Assembly: GCF_013122565.1 (NCBI RefSeq)
Contig: NZ_CP053258.1
Origin: Escherichia coli
GTDB lineage: Bacteria > Pseudomonadota > Gammaproteobacteria > Enterobacterales > Enterobacteriaceae
Strand: one strand, 5' to 3'
Length of the DNA: 64,000 bases
Numbering within the stretch: position 1 is the first letter of the stretch; the number at the start of each line of letters is the position of its first letter. The notes beneath the pieces were generated by a model, which saw nothing but the letters and a program-made list of their open reading frames with translations, searched no databases and was not told where the DNA came from. The translations under genes and the position numbers were made by a program. Positions 5,260-33,603 of the stretch are shown piece by piece.

Positions 5260-5266
5260 TAAATAA

Positions 5267-5298
5267 CCCGGCAGCGTTTCTTCTGCGCTGCCGGGATT
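5267..5298 (+). terminator. Putative hairpin terminator after yhjJ
   Basis: Stem cccggcagcg / cgctgccggg directly after the yhjJ stop; weak T tract. Confidence 0.4.
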
Positions 5299-5457
5299 AA
5301 CGGTAATGAATAAGTTGCCGTGATATACCCGCAGAGATTTTTCCAGGCACGGCGGTAGCGTGCAGATAACCATTCATTATTAGAATAAACTTACGGCTGT
5401 GTGAGTTTAATTATTTATTGGCTGAATAAATTGCCAGGAAATAGATGGTGTTAAATA

Positions 5458-5718
5458 ATGGCCTATCATATAGAAATATGGGAAATTGAAGAAACTGATA
5501 AAGTAGTAAAATATGAATTTGGACCTATATCTTCTGACTATTGTAGATCTGATTACGGCGAGTTCGTGATAGATAAAAGAACGGGGGAGATGACATTAGT
5601 CAGACTGGTTAAAAACGATTCGGCTAATAAATTTTATTTGCGAGCGAGTTTTAAGATTCTGACCTGTTGGCGAAAGGGCTATTTGCCAAAAACAAGGAAT
5701 GAGCTTCTTAATAAGTAA
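5458..5718 (+). CDS. Hypothetical small protein (86 aa), AT-rich accessory ORF
   Basis: ATG-initiated ORF, very low GC, first of five co-directional small ORFs; no family recognised. Confidence 0.4.
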   Translation: MAYHIEIWEIEETDKVVKYEFGPISSDYCRSDYGEFVIDKRTGEMTLVRLVKNDSANKFYLRASFKILTCWRKGYLPKTRNELLNK

Positions 5719-5779
5719 CTTTGCATAATAAGTGAATTTTCCCATTTTTGGGGGGCAGTCGTTGATTCTTACACAGTTT

Positions 5780-6028
5780 ATGTTATGGGTGCAGAAAAAC
5801 ACTGGGCATAATATTAAAAGCAATGCCAATACCTTATCAACCAGCATAGTTATTGATTTTGATAATGATATCCATATTGCCAGATTTACAGGTTGGGATG
5901 ATTTAAGTTGTATGTCAGAAGTTATATGCGTTGAATCGGGTGATTATAAATTAAATCAGCGAAATGAATTCCATACTTATGATTCGCTAAGGATAATATT
6001 TGATGCTTTAATAGAAAGCATACAGTAA
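5780..6028 (+). CDS. Hypothetical small protein (about 82 aa from first ATG; 98 aa if non-ATG start at 5732)
   Basis: ORF in the same AT-rich cluster; start codon unclear and no convincing RBS. Confidence 0.3.
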   Translation: MLWVQKNTGHNIKSNANTLSTSIVIDFDNDIHIARFTGWDDLSCMSEVICVESGDYKLNQRNEFHTYDSLRIIFDALIESIQ

Positions 6029-6088
6029 CTTTTTTCTTAGTAAGAAAATAATATACACGAGTATATCTAATTAAATTTAGGATAGGCT

Positions 6089-23387: not shown

Positions 23388-23421
23388 ATCGCCCGAACAG
23401 GAATGTTTGGGCGATTTTTAT
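23388..23421 (+). terminator. Putative intrinsic terminator of ccp
   Basis: Stem atcgcccgaaca / tgtttgggcgat followed by ttttta. Confidence 0.5.
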
Positions 23422-23490
23422 TACGATAATAAAGTCTGTTTTTAATATTATCATGTTAAATGTTTATATTATAAAAAGTCGTTTTTCTGC

Positions 23491-23510
23491 TTAGGATTTT
23501 GTTATTTAAA
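23491..23510 (+). promoter_or_regulatory. GAD box (GadE/GadX-W binding site) upstream of gadA
   Basis: Exact match to the 20-bp motif ttaggattttgttatttaaa, about 80 nt upstream of the gadA start. Confidence 0.65.
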
Positions 23511-25359: not shown

Positions 25360-26184
25360 ATGCAATCACTACATGGGAATTGTCTAATTGCGTACGCTAG
25401 ACATAAATATATTCTCACCATGGTTAATGGTGAATATCGCTATTTTAATGGCGGTGACCTGGTTTTTGCGGATGCAAGCCAAATTCGAGTAGATAAGTGT
25501 GTTGAAAATTTTGTATTAGTATCAAGGGATACACTTTCATTATTTCTCCCGATGCTCAAGGAGGAGGCATTAAATCTTCATGCACATAAAAAAGTTCTTT
25601 CATTACTCATTCATCACTGTAGCAGAGATATTCCTTTTTTTCAGGAAGTTGCGCAACTATCGCAGAATAAGAATCTTCGCTATGCAGAAATGTTACGTAA
25701 AAGAGCATTAATCTTTGCGTTGTTATCTGTTTTTCTTGAGGATGAGCACTTTATACCGCTGCTTCTGAACGTTTTACAACCGAACATGCGAACACGAGTT
25801 TGTACGGTTATCAATAATAATATCGCTCATGAGTGGACACTAGCTCGAATCGCCAGCGAGCTATTGATGAGTCCAAGCCTGTTAAAGAAAAAATTGCGCG
25901 AAGAAGAGACATCATATTCACAGTTGCTTACTGAGTGTAGAATGCAACGTGCTTTGCAACTTATTGTTATACATGGATTTTCAATTAAGCGAGTCGCAGT
26001 GTCCTGTGGATATCACAGCGTGTCGTATTTCATTTACGTCTTTCGAAATTATTATGGGATGACGCCCACAGAGTATCAGGAGCGATCGGCGCAGGGATTG
26101 TCGAACTGTGACTCGGCGGCAAGTATGGTTGCGCAAGGAAATTTTTACGGTATTGACTGTTCTGCGGAAGAAATAAGATTATAG
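25360..26184 (+). CDS. gadX: AraC-family acid-resistance regulator GadX
   Basis: 274-aa ORF with C-terminal AraC-type HTH. Confidence 0.9.
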   Translation: MQSLHGNCLIAYARHKYILTMVNGEYRYFNGGDLVFADASQIRVDKCVENFVLVSRDTLSLFLPMLKEEALNLHAHKKVLSLLIHHCSRDIPFFQEVAQLSQNKNLRYAEMLRKRALIFALLSVFLEDEHFIPLLLNVLQPNMRTRVCTVINNNIAHEWTLARIASELLMSPSLLKKKLREEETSYSQLLTECRMQRALQLIVIHGFSIKRVAVSCGYHSVSYFIYVFRNYYGMTPTEYQERSAQGLSNCDSAASMVAQGNFYGIDCSAEEIRL

Positions 26185-26200
26185 AGTTTTACTCAGGCAT

Positions 26201-26306
26201 AAAAAAAACCCGGCATAGGGGACCGGGAAGAGGATAGTCTGCCGTCTCCAGACTAATAAACCGTTATAACACTCCCTGTTGGCACGGGAAACTTTGTGCT
26301 CTCAGT
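26201..26306 (-). ncRNA. gadY: Small regulatory RNA GadY (antisense to the gadX 3' end)
   Basis: Minus-strand sequence ACTGAGAGCACAAAGTTTCCCGTGCCAACAGGG...CCCCTATGCCGGGTTTTTTTT matches GadY as I recall it, ending in a GC hairpin plus U8; lies in the gadX-gadW intergenic region. Confidence 0.7.
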
Positions 26307-26552
26307 AAGTTAAATATAACTTTTACTGGAAATAAGATCAGCCATTTTTTTATAAACATAAGCTATACGCTGTGTGAAAATATATTCTTATTGCATTTAC
26401 TAATTTTTAATCAACTGTTATGCAAAACTACTTTTTGGATAAATTTTGGTCCTACCAAATATGGCAGTTTTTGCACTAAGAAACAGTCTGGCATCATTTC
26501 ATTAGTATACTGAAATTGAAATAATCGCAGTAATGAAATATAAGGGATAATC

Positions 26553-27281
26553 ATGACTCATGTCTGCTCGGTGATCCTCGTTCGTCGTTCATTCGATATT
26601 TATCATGAACAGCAAAAAATATCGCTGCATAACGAGAGTATCCTGCTGCTGGAGAAAAATTTGGCAGACGATTTTGCGTTTTGTTCACCGGATACGCGAC
26701 GACTGGATATCGATGAGCTGACAGTTTGCCATTACTTACAAAATATTCGTCAGCTACCACGCAATTTAGGGTTACATAGCAAAGACCGTTTGTTAATTAA
26801 CCAGTCACCCCCCATGCCACTGGTGACGGCGATTTTTGATAGCTTCAATGAATCCGGGGTAAATTCACCGATACTGAGCAATATGCTCTACCTTTCCTGT
26901 TTATCGATGTTTTCTCATAAGAAAGAACTTATCCCCTTACTTTTCAATAGCATCAGCACTGTTTCAGGAAAAGTTGAACGCCTTATTAGCTTTGATATCG
27001 CTAAACGTTGGTATCTGCGCGATATCGCGGAAAGAATGTATACCAGCGAGAGTCTCATCAAAAAAAAGTTGCAGGATGAAAACACCTGTTTCAGTAAAAT
27101 ATTACTCGCCTCCAGGATGTCGATGGCCAGACGATTACTCGAGTTACGTCAAATTCCTCTGCATACTATTGCGGAAAAATGTGGCTATAGCAGTACATCG
27201 TACTTTATAAACACATTTCGACAATATTATGGTGTAACGCCACATCAGTTTGCGCAACATTCGCCAGGTACCTTTTCCTGA
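26553..27281 (+). CDS. gadW: AraC-family acid-resistance regulator GadW
   Basis: 242-aa ORF, paralogous to GadX, C-terminal AraC HTH. Confidence 0.9.
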   Translation: MTHVCSVILVRRSFDIYHEQQKISLHNESILLLEKNLADDFAFCSPDTRRLDIDELTVCHYLQNIRQLPRNLGLHSKDRLLINQSPPMPLVTAIFDSFNESGVNSPILSNMLYLSCLSMFSHKKELIPLLFNSISTVSGKVERLISFDIAKRWYLRDIAERMYTSESLIKKKLQDENTCFSKILLASRMSMARRLLELRQIPLHTIAEKCGYSSTSYFINTFRQYYGVTPHQFAQHSPGTFS

Positions 27282-27643
27282 CATATTTCGCATTTGAATA
27301 TTGGTCAGGATCTCACACCTGCTTCATGTGAAACTCTTCCCTGATGATTTCTGCCGGGCTACCGGCTAGTTCTCTTTCGCAGTTTGCCAGGCGGTATAGG
27401 TATTTTCAGGAGGAAAAGACTCGGCATGTTTGGGATTATTAAGCTGACAATTCATACGATTACGGGAATGTGGGTCAGTATTGTGTTGTTCAAATTGATG
27501 ACGAATGGCTGGAGTGGTTTCTACTTTCAGTGCTGTGTACTAAGCCTGGTATTCCTGACGGTTAGCTGGTTGTTGAGTGGTGAATGGTTAGCAGGAAAGA
27601 GTAAGGCTGAACCCTCACGTTCAACCTTACTCTCATTTACACG

Positions 27644-30600
27644 TTACGCTTTTTTAAAGCGGACAAAGAGATGTTCCACTACAACAAAAAAGACCGGAAC
27701 GAAGTAAATTGCCAGCACTGTTGCGGCAAACATCCCGCCCATCACGCCGGTACCTACCGCGTTTTGCGCGCCAGAACCGGCACCATGACTGATAACCAGC
27801 GGCAGCACGCCGAGAATAAAGGCCAGAGAGGTCATCAGGATTGGGCGTAAACGCATCCGTGCCGCTTCGATGATTGCCTCTATCGGCGTTTTCCCTTCTT
27901 TCTGCATCATCTCAACGGCAAATTCGACAATCAGGATGGCGTTCTTGGCGGAAAGCCCGATGGTGGTCAGCAAACCAACCTGGAAGTAGACGTCATTACT
28001 TAAGCCGCGCAGATCGGTGGCCAGTAATGCGCCAACGACGCCTAACGGAACAACCAACATCACCGAGAACGGAATTGACCAGCTCTCATAGAGTGCGGCG
28101 AGGGCGAGGAACACCACGACCAGTGAAATGGCATACAGTGCAGGAGCCTGGTTTGAGGATAACGCTTCCTGATACGACAGCCCGGTCCATGAGTAGCCGA
28201 CGCCTGCCGGAAGTTTAGCGACCAGGTCTGCCATAAATTTCATAGCGTCGCCGGTACTTTTCCCGGCCGCCGCTTCACCTAAAATCTCCATTGACGGGAT
28301 GCCGTTGTAGCGTTCCAGTCGCGGTGAACCATAGGTCCATTCGGTAGACGAGTAGGCAGAAAGCGGTGCCATCGTGCCAGAGGCGTTGCGTACATACCAT
28401 TGGTTGATGTTATCCGGCAACATACGGAATGGCGTGCCTGCCTGGACATACACTTTTTTCACCCGCCCCTGGTTGAGGAAGTCGTTCACGTAGCTGCTGC
28501 CGAAGGCGGTGGAAATTGTCTGGTTGATATCAGACAGCGCCACGCCCATCGCTTCAGCTTTCGCAGCGTTGACGTTGACTTTGAACATCGGCGTATCTTC
28601 CAGGCCGTTCGGGCGTACCCCGGTGACCTGATTCGGTGATTGCGCTGCCAGTGATAACAGCTCGTTTCGCGCCTGGGTTAGTTTTTCGTGCCCCAGGTTA
28701 CCGTTGTCCAGCAGTTCCATATCAAAACCTGACGCGGTACCCAGTTCAGCCACCGCGGGTAAGTTGAATGGGAAGACGACGGCTTTATTGATACTGCTTA
28801 ACGCAATCATTGCCCGCTGAATGATCGCGGTAACCGAGTTTTCCTCACCGACACGTTCAGACCACGGCTTGAGACTGATAAACGCCAGGCCGTTGTTTTG
28901 CCCCTGGCCGCTGAAGCCAAAGCCGCCAACGGTAAATACCGACTGGACATTATCTTTCTCTTTAGTCAGATAATAATCCGTCACCTGTTGCAGCACTTTC
29001 GTGGTGTTAACCATGGTGGCACCGGAAGGTAACTGCGCGGTGGTCATAAATACCCCCTGATCCTCTTCTGGTAAGAAAGAGGTCGGCGTGCGCAGGAACA
29101 GCACCGCCATCCCGGCGCAAATCAGGAGGTAGACCACCATGTAGCGACCGGTACAACGCAACAGCGAGCGGGTGCTATCGGTATAGTGCTGAGTTGATTT
29201 TTCAAACAGCGTGTTGAAGCGTGCGAACAGGGCGTTAGGTTTATGACCGCCTTCCGGCGCGGCTTTCAGAATGGTGGCGCACAGGGCAGGGGTCAGGCTC
29301 ATTGCCACAAATACTGAAAGCAGCATGGAGGAGATCAGCGTGATGGAGAACTGGCGGTAGATCTCCCCGGTTGCACCGCTCATAAAGGCCATCGGCATAA
29401 ACACTGCGGAAAGAACAACGGCAATCCCGACCAGCGCACGTTGGATCTGCCCCATCGATTTATGCGTCGCTTCCTTCGGCGGTAGCTTATCTTCCGCAAT
29501 GACACGCTCGACGTTCTCCACCACCACGATGGCGTCATCCACCAGTAACCCTATCGCCAGCACCATCCCGAACATAGTCAACGTGTTGATGGTGAAACCG
29601 ACCGCCGACAAGATCGCAAACGTCCCGAGAATAACCACCGGTACGGCAATCGTCGGGATGATTGTGGCACGGAAATTCTGCAAAAACAGATACATGACCA
29701 GGAAGACGAGGATGATAGCCTCAACCAGTGTTTTGAAAACTTCCTGAATAGAAATTTCGATAAACGGCGTGGTGTCGTAAGGATAAACCGTCTTCAGACT
29801 TGCCGGGAAATAGGCTGATAAGCGGTTCAGTTCCTCTTTGACTGCCCGCGAGGTATCCAGGGCGTTTGCTCCGGCAGCCAGTTTGATGGCGATCCCGGCA
29901 GCAGGTTTGCCGTTATAGCGCGCCACGGTGGAATAATCTTCCGCCCCAAGTTCGACGCGGGCGACATCACGCAGCAGCACTTGCGAACCATCTTGCTGAA
30001 CTTTCAACAGGATTTTGCCAAATTCTTCCGGCGTTTGCAGACGCGTCTGCACAATGATCGAGGCGTTTAGTTGCTGGTCTGCTGCCTGTGGCATGCCACC
30101 CAGTTGACCACCAGAAATCTGGTTGTTCTGCACCTTAATCTGGGAAATAACATCGGAAGGTACCAGGTTATATTTATTGAGTTTTTGCGGATCCAGCCAG
30201 ATCCGCATGGCGTACTCGGAACCAAAGAGCTGTACGCTACCAACGCCCGCGGTACGGCTTAGTGGGTCTTTGATATTAGACGCTACATAGTCCGCGATAT
30301 CGTACTGGTTGAGGCTGCCGTTATCAGAAATAAACGCCGCTACCATTAGGATATTACTGCTCGATTTATCGACGCTAATCCCCTGCTGCTGCACTGCTTC
30401 AGGTAATGAAGGCATAGCGAGTTGCAGTTTATTTTGCACCTGAACCTGTGCGATATCAGGAGATGTCCCAGTCTCGAAGGTCAGAGTGATAGAGGCATTA
30501 CCCGCCGCATCACTGGTTGAAGACATGTACATCAGGCCATCAAGCCCATTCATATTTTGCTCAATCACCTGAGTGACCGAGTCTTCTACCGTTTGCGCAT

Positions 30601-30757
30601 CGGCACCCGGATAGGTAGCGCTGACGGTAATGGTCGGTGGCGCAATCTGCGGATACTGCGCAACCGGTAAGTTCATGATCGCCAGACCACCTGCAAGCAT
30701 CATAATAATGGCAAGTACCCAGGCAAAAACCGGGCGATCAATAAAATAGTTAGCCAT
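27644..30757 (-). CDS. mdtF: RND multidrug efflux pump permease MdtF
   Basis: 1037-aa AcrB-like RND transporter. Confidence 0.95.
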
Positions 30758-30781
30758 GAAAGTCCCCTTAAGCCTGCAACG

Positions 30782-31939
30782 TTATTGTTTCGATTCGGTG
30801 CTGGCGTTTTCCTGGCCGGAGGAAATTGCTCGTGCTTTGATACCCGGACGAATGCGTTGCAAACCGGAAACGATCACCCGATCGCCAGCCTGCAAGCCAG
30901 AGGTGACGACCCACTGGTCGCCGATGGCTTTGCTGGCTTCAATTTCGCGTAGCTGCACGACATCGTCTTTATCCAGAATGAGCGCCGTTGCTTTACCCTG
31001 GGCGTTGTGGGTGACGCCTTCCTGCGGCACCAGTAATACATTCTGGCGGCTACCTTCATCCACTAATGCCGTGACATACATGCCAGGCAGCAAGTCACCA
31101 TTTGGGTTGGGGAAAATCGCCCGTAACGTCACGGAGCCCGTGGTTTCATCCACCGTCGGGTCGGAGAATTTCAACGTGCCGGTCTGGCTGTAACGTTTAC
31201 CATTTTCCAGATTGAGCTGTACTGGCGTACTGCCCTGAATCTGTTTGATTTGCCCATTGGCGACCTCTTCTTTCATACGCAAGAAATCCTGCACCGACTG
31301 CGTGAGATCGACATAAATCGGGTCCAGACGTTGTATGGTAACCAGCGAATCTGCCTGATTAGCGGTAACGAGTGCGCCAACGGTCACCGACGATTTCCCG
31401 CTGACGCCCGTAATCGGCGAGGTGACATTCGCGTATTGCAGATTGATCGTCGCCTGTTCAACAGCCGCTTTGGCGACGGTGACATTGGCTTCTGCTTCAT
31501 TCAGCTGGGTGCGCGCGGTGTCGTAATCCTGACGGCTAACGTAGTTGGTCTTCAGCAACGATGCCTGGCGGTTAAAGGTGATGCGGGCATTGCTGGCGGT
31601 AGAGAGCGCTTTCGCCAGCGAGCCTTTGGCGGAGTTTAGCTCGGCCTGTAAAGGTGCAGGGTCAATCTGGTACAGCGAATCGCCCTGGTTCACTTTATCG
31701 CCTTCGATAAAGTTGCGTTTAATGATAATACCACCCACCTGGGGACGTATCTCGGCAACTTCATAAGGAACGGTTCTACCGGGCAATTCGCTCAACACAT
31801 TGACCGAACCGGGGGAGAGTGTGACGACACCGACCTCAGGCGTCATGGCGGCGGCGTTTTCCGCCGATTTGTCATCGCAGGCGGTGAGCATCGCGCCGCA
31901 GAATAACAACGGTATTAACAGCTTTCTTCTTCTGTTCAT
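30782..31939 (-). CDS. mdtE: RND efflux membrane fusion (periplasmic adaptor) protein MdtE
   Basis: 385-aa ORF with lipoprotein signal (LLFCGAMLTAC); AcrA-like; 24 nt upstream of mdtF. Confidence 0.95.
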   Translation of the reverse strand: MNRRRKLLIPLLFCGAMLTACDDKSAENAAAMTPEVGVVTLSPGSVNVLSELPGRTVPYEVAEIRPQVGGIIIKRNFIEGDKVNQGDSLYQIDPAPLQAELNSAKGSLAKALSTASNARITFNRQASLLKTNYVSRQDYDTARTQLNEAEANVTVAKAAVEQATINLQYANVTSPITGVSGKSSVTVGALVTANQADSLVTIQRLDPIYVDLTQSVQDFLRMKEEVANGQIKQIQGSTPVQLNLENGKRYSQTGTLKFSDPTVDETTGSVTLRAIFPNPNGDLLPGMYVTALVDEGSRQNVLLVPQEGVTHNAQGKATALILDKDDVVQLREIEASKAIGDQWVVTSGLQAGDRVIVSGLQRIRPGIKARAISSGQENASTESKQ

Positions 31940-32277
31940 TTTAGTCCCTGAAAATTCTTGAGAAATAACGGTTCTTTAAATTGCGCGCGAGGAGAGATAT
32001 GAGGGATTTACAGACCAGCGGCATAGTGGGGTTGTCAGCCAGTAAGGTGGGATACAGGCACAGTGATCGACATGGTGAGGTCAACGACAAAAAAAATGTT
32101 GCCGTTCTGCCAACAGTTCCTGCCAGCATTCGGGCAACGAAGGGTTCTACTGGTGGATACACATACCAGGGGAATAAAGTCGTTTTAGCCTCTCCTTTAG
32201 TAATCACCGGGGGTAATGAAATCAGCATCTGCATCCCTCGTCATGCCAGCCATCAATTTCAGTTGCTTATGTCCTGA

Positions 32278-32805
32278 CTAAAAATAAGATGTGATACCCA
32301 GGGTGACGATGTCGCTCATACGTCTTAGTTTCAGCTTGTACATAATGTTGAATTTCTGAATCTTTAATGTTTGTTGCGAAATATTGAGCGTCGACGTGAT
32401 ATTGCTTTCATTTTTATTTTTCAGAATCAGTTGCATAATTTTGAACTGATTATGTGAAAAACATAATTCTGAATTCTTATGGGGCAAGTGTTTACCATAA
32501 GTAATCTCAAGAAGATTTTTGATACTTTCTTTGCGGCTGACAAAATAAATAGGCGCTTTAGCTTTTAGTTTACTGATGTGATAAGGTGCCAAAACAATAA
32601 TTCTCTCGGCATCTAATTTCTCCAGAAATTTAATCGCTTCTTCATCAAGGATATGATTGTGATAGGTATCAATGATAACCTTGAAGGGTTTATTGCCTAC
32701 TTTTTTGATCTCTGACAGGGAATTGATTTTTATCATTTCGTGATTATCTTTCAACTGCCAAAAGCCCTGTAAAAGAAAAGAATCTTTCGTCATGAGAAAA
32801 ATCAT
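32278..32805 (-). CDS. gadE: LuxR-family acid-resistance master regulator GadE
   Basis: 175 aa from MIFLMTKDSFLLQGFWQL; track ORF has a 26-codon N-terminal extension. Confidence 0.9.
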   Translation of the reverse strand: MIFLMTKDSFLLQGFWQLKDNHEMIKINSLSEIKKVGNKPFKVIIDTYHNHILDEEAIKFLEKLDAERIIVLAPYHISKLKAKAPIYFVSRKESIKNLLEITYGKHLPHKNSELCFSHNQFKIMQLILKNKNESNITSTLNISQQTLKIQKFNIMYKLKLRRMSDIVTLGITSYF

Positions 32806-33603
32806 AACTTGCTCCTTAGCCGTTATCGTTTCGAACATGTCATCCTTTTCATTATTTACATCCTTGTCCGAATCGTTGTTCAATATAGTAAACGCCTATA
32901 AGAACTTTGCCCTTCGTGAACTAATACGTCTATTAACACTAATCAATACTTCAGATTTATCCATCACGCACTCCATATATTGATCCTAAGTAAAATTCCT
33001 GGTTGTTATCAATTTGTAAACAGTGAACAAAAAGTTAACGTTTGCGGATTACTGCCCAAGAATAAGTTATCAATAACCAGTTTGTGATCTCTGAAGAATA
33101 TTACTAAAGTTAAAATGTAATCCGATTTAAATATCGAGTCTCCTTGTTTCGACTTAAGCTGGCAATTGGATTGCCAGCTTTCTTTTAACGCATTGAAATT
33201 ACCTGAGTAAATAACGCATTCATGTCTTCAGGTTTTTATATAGCGTCTGGAGACACGGATATTTATGCAATGTAATCAACGCCAGTTGCAATAAAATGAA
33301 CCCGGATTACTTATTTAACCGCCCATATCATCAACGCTTACGGAACTCTTTGTTCACTTTCCCACAGCACTTTTAAAACATTAAACCTGACTACGGAAAA
33401 TATCAGCCATGATAATGTTTGAAATGGCTAATTTGCCATGGAATGAAAAAATTTAGATTAAATTCAGTAGGTTGAAATAATCACCAGCAGGTGATTATTT
33501 CAATGATAGTGCGAAAATGATCTGCAACGCTGTGAAGCGGAGAGAGTATTAATTAGATCATAGTCACATCAAGTGACTATGATCCAGATGACAACCGGGA
33601 TAA

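Follow-up and report, generated by a model that had tools for sequence, protein, structure and literature searches.

The 798-bp region between hdeD and gadE in an Escherichia coli genome very probably corresponds to the gadE sensory integration region of K-12

Introduction

gadE is the master gene for acid resistance in E. coli. GadE governs how both E. coli and Shigella survive the acid of the stomach, and the gadE region receives more than ten converging signals. In a stretch of 64,000 nucleotides from E. coli (RefSeq assembly GCF_013122565.1, contig NZ_CP053258.1; hereafter the window), gadE is preceded by about 800 bp in which the initial annotation found no convincing gene and which it described as an unusually long, AT-rich untranslated region. 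What this stretch carries, and whether any of it is translated, is the question addressed here. Long control regions which take many inputs are known, examples being the rpoS leader and the csgD-csgB intergenic region; like the gadE region these are several hundred nucleotides long, AT-rich, silenced by H-NS, subject to many transcription factors and sRNAs, and located upstream of a master regulator. They are unrelated to the gadE region in sequence, however, and the sRNA of the gadE region differs in being encoded in cis, on the strand opposite the leader. A gadE sensory integration region with promoters P1-P3 was reportedly described by Ma et al. in 2004 and by Sayed and Foster in 2009, and the small RNA ArrS is said to have been described by Aiso et al. 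in 2011 and 2014.

The hdeD-gadE intergenic region and its counterpart in K-12

The acid fitness island lies in the window in the reverse of its K-12 orientation, and the region of interest is delimited by the following features.

33604-34176, minus strand: hdeD coding sequence (190 aa; ORF list), with 100% amino acid identity to K-12 HdeD; upstream neighbour of the gap
32806-33603, minus strand: hdeD-gadE intergenic region, exactly 798 bp, bounded by listed ORFs
32278-32805, minus strand: gadE coding sequence (175 aa; 528 nt) with its ATG at 32805 and 99.4% amino acid identity to K-12 GadE

The two genes are co-directional with hdeD upstream, as at the gadE sensory integration region. The length of about 800 bp and the lack of a credible gene were both borne out, as the gap measures 798 bp and the ORF list contains nothing longer than 63 aa within it; among the stretches of the 64-kb window that are free of ORFs of at least 100 aa, it ranks second in size. 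It is also AT-rich as first described (G+C of 35.5% vs 48.3% for the whole window), with the refinement that the AT-richness runs on through the gadE coding sequence (G+C of 0.30-0.345 in 200-nt windows). Because the coding sequence is equally AT-rich, low G+C characterises this segment of the island, and the gap is not special in this respect.

In K-12 MG1655 the hdeD-gadE gap is likewise 798 bp long (3657568-3658365); arrS is the sole feature annotated in it, and gadF lies just downstream of gadE. The alignment of the two gaps is free of indels, with approximately 97% identity. Positions are given below either in the window or relative to gadE, position -n corresponding to window position 32805+n. 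Sixteen of the 27 substitutions relative to K-12 fall within the 165 bp closest to hdeD, a further cluster is found at -220 to -189, and none occurs between -486 and -221, an interval which spans ArrS, the ArrS promoter and the T2 transcript starts. Single substitutions are found at -31, giving ATG where K-12 has ATA, and at -104 in the T1 leader. At least 80% of a 1-kb query spanning the gap was recovered from 5403 of the 5426 complete E. coli genomes in the collection at 95-99% identity, and none of the genomes exceeded 98.3% identity to the query.

The window thus shares with the K-12 region of promoters P1-P3 the same flanking genes, the same 798 bp and a collinear sequence, with ArrS, its promoter, the T2 region and the P3 core identical. 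This agrees with the published description of a gadE promoter that is 'unusually long' at 798 bp and counts among some eight intergenic regions of such size in E. coli (PMC3708157). The gap is therefore very probably the orthologue of the K-12 gadE sensory integration region, that is, promoter and leader DNA with ArrS, which upholds the identification proposed in the initial annotation; the region is an ordinary one and already known. One part of the first description needs narrowing, since published leaders reach 566 nt at most and not all of the roughly 800 bp is untranslated leader; the other 232 bp comprise the P3 promoter region and the 3' trailer of hdeD.

Transcript starts and promoters

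An alignment to the K-12 promoter map had been proposed as a check, and the absence of indels allowed both the published 5' ends and ArrS to be placed. The gadE 5' ends reported for K-12 (PMC3708157) were carried over by alignment, the local sequence being identical or nearly so, and are expected by homology at the following positions.

32826, minus strand: 5' end T (-21)
32929, minus strand: T1 start (-124, promoter P1)
33122 and 33129, minus strand: T2 5' ends (-317 and -324)
33371, minus strand: T3 start (-566, promoter P3)

The -21 end is suspected in the same paper to be a processing product (PMC3708157). T1 sits in a run of 37 nt (-141 to -105) that is invariant across Escherichia, and the T3 start is at the edge of a conserved block (0.95-0.97 identity). 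The T2 ends fall within the stretch complementary to ArrS, 5-12 nt from the ArrS 5' end, and GATATT at -330 to -325 could be the -10 element for the -317 end. The named -10 and -35 elements of P1, P2, P3 and ArrS are weak matches and were absent from the output of a consensus promoter scan.

In K-12 more than ten regulators act on the region, with antagonism between H-NS and ArcA and with autoactivation by GadE at P1, and deletion analyses showed that P3 is required for full activity (PMC3708157). Occupancy across the locus depends on H-NS/StpA (PMC12266141), and gadE mRNA is bound by CsrA (PMC11210196); the final 60 nt of the leader in the window contain three GGA motifs, one of them within the ribosome-binding site.

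ArrS

The initial annotation mentioned an antisense small RNA against the gadE leader that it could not place. ArrS is present opposite the 5' leader and was located exactly by the same alignment, K-12 arrS being b4704 (3657985-3658054, minus strand).

33117-33186, plus strand: ArrS antisense sRNA (70 nt), carried over from K-12 arrS by the indel-free alignment, 70/70 nt identical
33156-33180, plus strand: ArrS intrinsic terminator hairpin (11-bp stem), followed by TCTTTT
33082-33109, plus strand: candidate ArrS promoter read from the sequence (TTGTGA, 16 nt, C-TAAAGT), with the start G33117 lying 7 nt downstream

The sequence, the antisense position and the terminator are all the same as those of K-12 ArrS. 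The RNA is complementary to -381 to -312 of the T3 leader of gadE. Its predicted fold (-20.2 kcal/mol, z = -3.84) was better than those of all 200 shuffles, and the terminator, which was also recovered as inverted repeat I4, is the only terminator-like site in 32700-33700. We infer the TTGTGA/C-TAAAGT pair to be the ArrS promoter; it was absent from the output of a simple promoter scan, and the block that contains it is 85-86% conserved in non-coli Escherichia. In the alignment ArrS itself is nearly invariant across Escherichia species. A scan of 31500-35500 with Rfam 15 (E<=1) gave no match to ArrS and returned only ES205/GadF (32089-32160) and a chance match to a miRNA, which suggests that the library holds no ArrS model and that the result is not counter-evidence.

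Transcription of ArrS in K-12 is acid-induced and dependent on sigma-S and GadE (PMC6755755). The RNA is antisense to the longest gadE leader, its action is linked to RNase III, and it also acts in trans via Hfq (PMC6755755, PMC6212723, PMC5145812). The position of the T2 ends inside the ArrS-complementary stretch fits the published shaping of the leader by ArrS pairing and RNase III (PMC6212723, PMC5145812).

Regulator motifs

A search for GAD-box-like motifs, also proposed with the initial annotation, gave no support at the level of the full consensus. The GAD box is the GadE/RcsB binding site, with the 20-bp consensus TTAGGATTTTGTTATTTAAA; the best match in 32806-33603 had 8 mismatches out of 20, where shuffled sequence typically reaches 6-7, so that the 20-mer is not above chance in this interval. 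A perfect copy is found elsewhere in the window (23491-23510). Matches to the 15-nt GadE ChIP-exo motif were found only with 3 mismatches, at 33092 and 33228, which is not above the AT-rich background. The elements considered further were as follows.

32970-32989 (-184 to -165), minus strand: GAD-box-like element TTAGGATCAATATATGGAGT, matching 11/20 consensus positions, not significant alone; its core TTACTTAGGAT is conserved from Escherichia to Citrobacter
32983-32989 (-184 to -178), minus strand: TTAGGAT core, kept in all Escherichia and in Citrobacter amalonaticus
33391-33410, minus strand: GadX/GadW-type box ATGGCTGATATTTTCCGTAG, matching 18/20 positions of the ChIP-exo motif (PMC4918353)

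The TTAGGATCAATATATGGAGT element, situated 41-60 nt upstream of T1, is probably the site of GadE autoregulation at P1. P1 was reported to contain a GAD box and to be autoactivated by GadE (PMC3708157), in agreement with the position of the TTAGGAT element. The GadX/GadW-type box is located 20-39 nt upstream of T3 and overlaps the -35 position; its 5' 14 nt are inside an invariant run (-628 to -592), and the whole box is inside the block of 0.95-0.97 identity. Matches to the GadX/GadW motif number 15 in the whole window, against 3.8 expected. Regulator action on the region in this genome would follow by homology to K-12, the motif evidence for it consisting of the GadX/W-type box and the TTAGGAT core.

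Conservation within Escherichia

A scan of species-representative genomes for GadE recovered six Escherichia lineages (the E. coli representative, Escherichia sp. MOD1-EC7003, strain E69, E. whittamii, E. albertii and Escherichia sp. E1V33), and hdeD is upstream of gadE in all six. Eight Escherichia sequences were aligned, and identity to the window was calculated in 30-nt bins for the four non-coli lineages.

-630 to -556: P3 block, identity 0.95-0.97, with 37 invariant nt (-628 to -592) and the T3 start at its edge
-381 to -259: ArrS block, identity 0.85-0.99, comprising ArrS and its promoter side
-200 to +1: proximal leader, identity 0.85-1.0, with invariant runs of 37, 29, 17 and 41 nt
33190-33345 (-385 to -540), minus strand: variable spacer, identity 0-0.5 in 30-nt bins against the four non-coli Escherichia

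The three noncoding islands are under stronger constraint than the GadE protein, because identity across the gadE coding sequence reaches only 0.88-0.90 between the same lineages and the window, and they mark the functional parts of the region. The spacer is largely deleted or unalignable outside E. coli. An IS1 element was observed at about -400 in E. coli strain PCP06022.

Translation start of gadE

The program-made ORF list gives gadE as a TTG-started ORF of 201 aa (32278-32883, minus strand) whose last 175 codons are GadE. Part of the gap would be coding if translation began upstream, either at this TTG or at an intervening ATG (giving 186 aa), and the signals bearing on the choice are listed below.

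32812-32818, minus strand: Shine-Dalgarno sequence TAAGGAG, 6 nt before the gadE ATG; invariant in 8/8 Escherichia
32836-32838, minus strand: in-frame ATG 11 codons upstream of gadE (-33), with AAGGA 4 nt upstream
32881-32883, minus strand: TTG of the 26-codon extension (ORF list), rejected as a start

The frame upstream of gadE is open for 30 codons, and three of the five variable sites in -60 to -1 are third positions in the frame of the extension; a frame of 25-30 open codons has, however, a calculated chance of about 11-16% at this base composition. The TTG is moved out of frame by a 1-nt insertion in strain E69, E. whittamii, E. albertii and E1V33, where an in-frame TGA lies across it. 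The ATG at -33, preceded by its AAGGA, is present in 10 of the 11 sequences examined, the exception being K-12, the strain in which GadE function was defined, which has ATA. It is the ATG at 32805 that is served by the invariant, perfect TAAGGAG at optimal spacing, and the AAGGAG of this ribosome-binding site is kept in C. amalonaticus. GadE homologues from Citrobacter, Kluyvera, Yokenella, Kosakonia and [Enterobacter] lignolyticus (43-53% identity) are 176 aa long, and those of the five genera share the N-terminus M-I-(F/L)-x-x-T-K-D; PGAP assigns 175 aa to gadE in other strains. The extended form of 186 aa was absent from a collection of 15 billion predicted protein sequences. One entry of 186 aa (P0001) was set aside as evidence for an N-terminal extension, its extra residues being an internal duplication, and the TRAINSPOTTER supplements make no mention of GadE.

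Translation of gadE from either upstream start is accordingly judged highly improbable. The 26-codon extension, already doubted in the initial annotation, is not real given the perfect ribosome-binding site at 32805, the start shared by the homologues, the break in frame in sister lineages and the 175 aa given by PGAP. The initial annotation had named a different gadE start codon as evidence that would count against it; on examination the evidence supports the ATG at 32805, and from these comparisons the annotated start is taken to be correct, with the ATG at 32838 possibly serving as at most a minor alternative.

Small ORFs within the region

The other observation named as counting against an untranslated region was a translated ORF within it. 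Two candidates were considered and neither was supported.

32896-32976 (-171 to -91), minus strand: 26-codon upstream ORF MECVMDKSEVLISVNRRISSRRAKFL, with its ATG at 32976 and AGGA 7 nt upstream
32792-32983, plus strand: 63-aa antisense ORF

The antisense ORF was rejected, as a 1-nt indel breaks its frame in sister species and the protein collection contains no copy of it. The 26-codon ORF, which overlaps P1, would be read from the T2 and T3 leaders and could influence gadE as a leader peptide or by coupling, in which translation is tied to the stability or termination of the leader. Besides the AGGA before its ATG, its start, frame and stop are kept in 8/8 Escherichia sequences even though its first nine codons carry several substitutions. 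The pattern of substitution nevertheless points away from a peptide, with codons 10-24 invariant at every nucleotide, third positions included, and the variable codons changing at positions 1, 2 and 3 alike, with no third-position bias. In the homologous stretch of C. amalonaticus both ATGs are missing and stop codons are present, and the neighbouring DNA motifs are kept. The ORF is absent from the K-12 RefSeq annotation and from the Ribo-RET small-ORF supplement (Stringer 2021), gadE being poorly expressed in the conditions used there; its only occurrence among the 15 billion predicted proteins is a mis-named JGI call, and a full-text literature search returned no report of a gadE uORF.

A translated small gene at this position is thus very unlikely, and the ORF was rejected as a gene for want of a coding signature and for the lost start and the stops in Citrobacter. 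Because third positions are invariant and the variable codons change at all positions, the constraint would act on DNA or RNA and not on a peptide; the P1 promoter and the leader RNA account for it best. Taken together, either form of Escherichia-specific translational control in the leader, the uORF at 32896-32976 read from T2/T3 or a GadE longer by 11 residues from the ATG at 32838, seems quite unlikely; if true, regulation in wild strains would depart from the K-12 model.

The hdeD trailer

The approximately 130 nt after hdeD fold into two strong, perfect hairpins (z = -7.7).

33556-33584, minus strand: hdeD-proximal hairpin with a stem of 12-14 bp (inverted repeat I2; fold)
33472-33503, minus strand: second perfect hairpin of 14 bp (inverted repeat I1; fold), of which other species keep only part

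The first is probably a 3'-end or terminator structure of hdeD. Across species 95% of its cells are paired, and two pairs are changed on both sides, reflecting a single evolutionary split. Compensation in the second hairpin was considered for the K-12 differences at -688 and -680 and rejected, as these positions are not paired. In functional terms the trailer is a part of hdeD and not of gadE.

Proposed working of the region

Identity, coordinates, structure, motif matches and conservation were established in the window itself, and transcript starts and regulator actions are carried over from K-12 by homology. Read in the direction of gadE, the region would begin with the hdeD trailer of about 130 nt and its two strong hairpins, followed by the conserved P3 block, in which the GadX/GadW-type activator box would serve the longest transcript, T3, with its 566-nt leader. 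The variable spacer comes next, and then the ArrS gene on the opposite strand, whose 70-nt RNA is fully complementary to -381 to -312 of the T3 leader, with the P2/T2 5' ends predicted to lie within the complementary stretch. Beyond this the conserved P1 region would supply the TTAGGAT element for autoactivation by GadE and the T1 start at -124, and the highly conserved final leader would lead to the perfect ribosome-binding site and the ATG at 32805.

From published K-12 work, P1-P3 would be driven by EvgA, YdeO, GadE, GadX/W, RpoS, PhoP, ArcA and MnmE and silenced by H-NS/StpA, and ArrS would pair in cis with T3, resulting in RNase III-dependent processing and stabilisation; the gadE mRNA would also be bound by CsrA, as published (PMC11210196). 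For annotation, the region may be labelled gadE promoter and leader with ArrS at 33117-33186 (plus strand), and the gadE start stays at 32805.

gadE loci beyond Escherichia

Four loci outside Escherichia encode an orthologue of 176 aa whose N-terminus is the same, and they differ from the window in that the neighbour is not hdeD.

Citrobacter amalonaticus: upstream neighbour slp, upstream gap 530 bp
[Enterobacter] lignolyticus: neighbour adiA/adiY-like, upstream gap 150 bp
Yokenella: neighbour adiA-like, upstream gap 128 bp
Kosakonia: neighbour adiA-like, upstream gap 36 bp

Two further contigs, labelled 'Flavobacterium' (L008) and 'Streptomyces' (L009), were rejected as distant homologues, being E. 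coli-like contamination, with homopolymer indel errors in L008.

The short gaps of Yokenella, Kosakonia and [Enterobacter] lignolyticus (36-150 bp) would be in keeping with a region that is mostly functionless AT-rich spacer, brought in when the acid fitness island was acquired horizontally and silenced by H-NS, in which only a short proximal promoter matters. The whole island is indeed AT-rich, and -385 to -540 is missing from sister species or cannot be aligned there, and tolerates an IS1 insertion in one strain. The pattern of conservation largely refutes this explanation, however, as the three distal blocks surpass the coding sequence in conservation; both ArrS and the TTAGGAT element are still present in Citrobacter, and P3 was needed for full activity in the published deletion analyses (PMC3708157). 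A functionless spacer is therefore extremely improbable, and the reading of the gap as a gadE control region is retained.

Among the four non-Escherichia loci, collinear similarity to the window was found only in the Citrobacter region, at -381 to -245 and -194 to -127. C. amalonaticus carries an ArrS-like antisense unit upstream of its gadE homologue, with a GC-rich hairpin, a U8 tail and a plausible promoter. Because only Citrobacter is collinear and has such a unit, the full 798-bp architecture is specific to Escherichia, as a derived elaboration, and ArrS is older than the genus, with a recognisable homologue in C. amalonaticus. The comparative additions refine the known picture and do not alter it; what seems to be new here is the near-invariance of ArrS across Escherichia together with this homologue and the compensatory change in its stem, the hairpin of the C. 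amalonaticus unit keeping its pairing through a change from A-T to G-C.

Variation at the hdeD-gadE locus within E. coli

The nucleotide sequence of the region was compared with 5426 complete E. coli genomes, the closest of which was at most 98.7% identical over the 12 kb from 26000 to 38000, while the 1 kb surrounding the hdeD-gadE intergenic region (32700-33700) was at most 98.3% identical to any of them. Despite this lower nucleotide closeness to complete genomes, HdeD is 100% and GadE 99.4% identical to the K-12 proteins. The DNA may come from a lineage which these genomes do not include, e.g. Shigella or an atypical E. coli. In E. coli PCP06022 (NZ_CM129876.1) an IS1A element was identified in the hdeD-gadE gap approximately 400 nt upstream of gadE, which adds approximately 777 bp at a site just upstream of the terminator side of ArrS, the antisense small RNA, and cuts off P3, the farthest upstream gadE promoter, from ArrS, P2 and P1.

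GadE variants of 186 and 185 amino acids (P0001 and P0002, respectively) are also found in public E. coli genomes and contain short internal tandem duplications, e.g. KAKAPIYFVSR and KKVGNKPF. A hdeD-gadE locus nearly identical to that of K-12 was found on contigs of assemblies labelled 'Flavobacterium paronense' (NZ_JAUFQN010000010.1) and 'Streptomyces sp. DH24' (NZ_JARVKW010000110.1); homopolymer indels in the former lower the apparent GadE identity to 71%. The presence of the E. coli locus in these non-enterobacterial assemblies is most likely contamination.

gadE loci outside Escherichia

Upstream of the gadE homologue in Citrobacter amalonaticus (PQMB01000002.1), at a distance of approximately 340-420 nt, an ArrS-like antisense unit was identified (positions 2575-2660 of compared locus L012, antisense strand), with a promoter-like pair (TTGTAG...TAGTAT) and a hairpin (GCTGGCGA/TCGCCAGC) that carries a U8 tail. 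In [Enterobacter] lignolyticus, Yokenella and Kosakonia (loci L013, L014 and L015) the gadE homologue immediately follows arginine-decarboxylase-type genes (adiA, or adiA plus an adiY-like gene), and genes for hdeA, hdeD and an amino-acid permease are found close by; these are acid-resistance modules which are wired differently.

Features flanking gadE, and a probable gadA promoter box

Two features were located on the 3' side of gadE:

32089-32160 (-), GadF/ES205 small RNA from the gadE 3' UTR (Rfam, 105 bits vs gathering score of 86)
31981-32277 (+), 98-amino-acid ORF running antisense across GadF and the gadE-mdtE spacer

The GadF/ES205 match is full length, with the terminator and U8 tail present. 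Counterparts of the ORF in other strains are annotated by PGAP as 'hypothetical protein' (WP_001205329.1, WP_001205333.1), while no counterpart is annotated in the K-12 RefSeq record; the ORF is probably a spurious call.

Another motif was located elsewhere in the window:

23491-23510 (+), GAD box TTAGGATTTTGTTATTTAAA, matching 20 of 20 consensus positions

This is presumably the gadA promoter box, and two GadX/W-type motif matches lie immediately upstream of it, at 23408-23451.

Other structures and ORF-poor DNA

One further structure was noted:

35217-35259, near-perfect palindrome forming a hairpin in the hdeB-yhiD spacer

The hairpin is probably a bidirectional terminator; a microRNA family which scored weakly on both strands was rejected as a chance match.

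The longest run in the window lacking ORFs of at least 100 amino acids is 5260-6088 (829 bp), adjoining yhjJ. The surrounding 1.8 kb is at least 80% covered in just 170 of the 5426 complete E. coli genomes, in which four small hypothetical proteins are annotated there.
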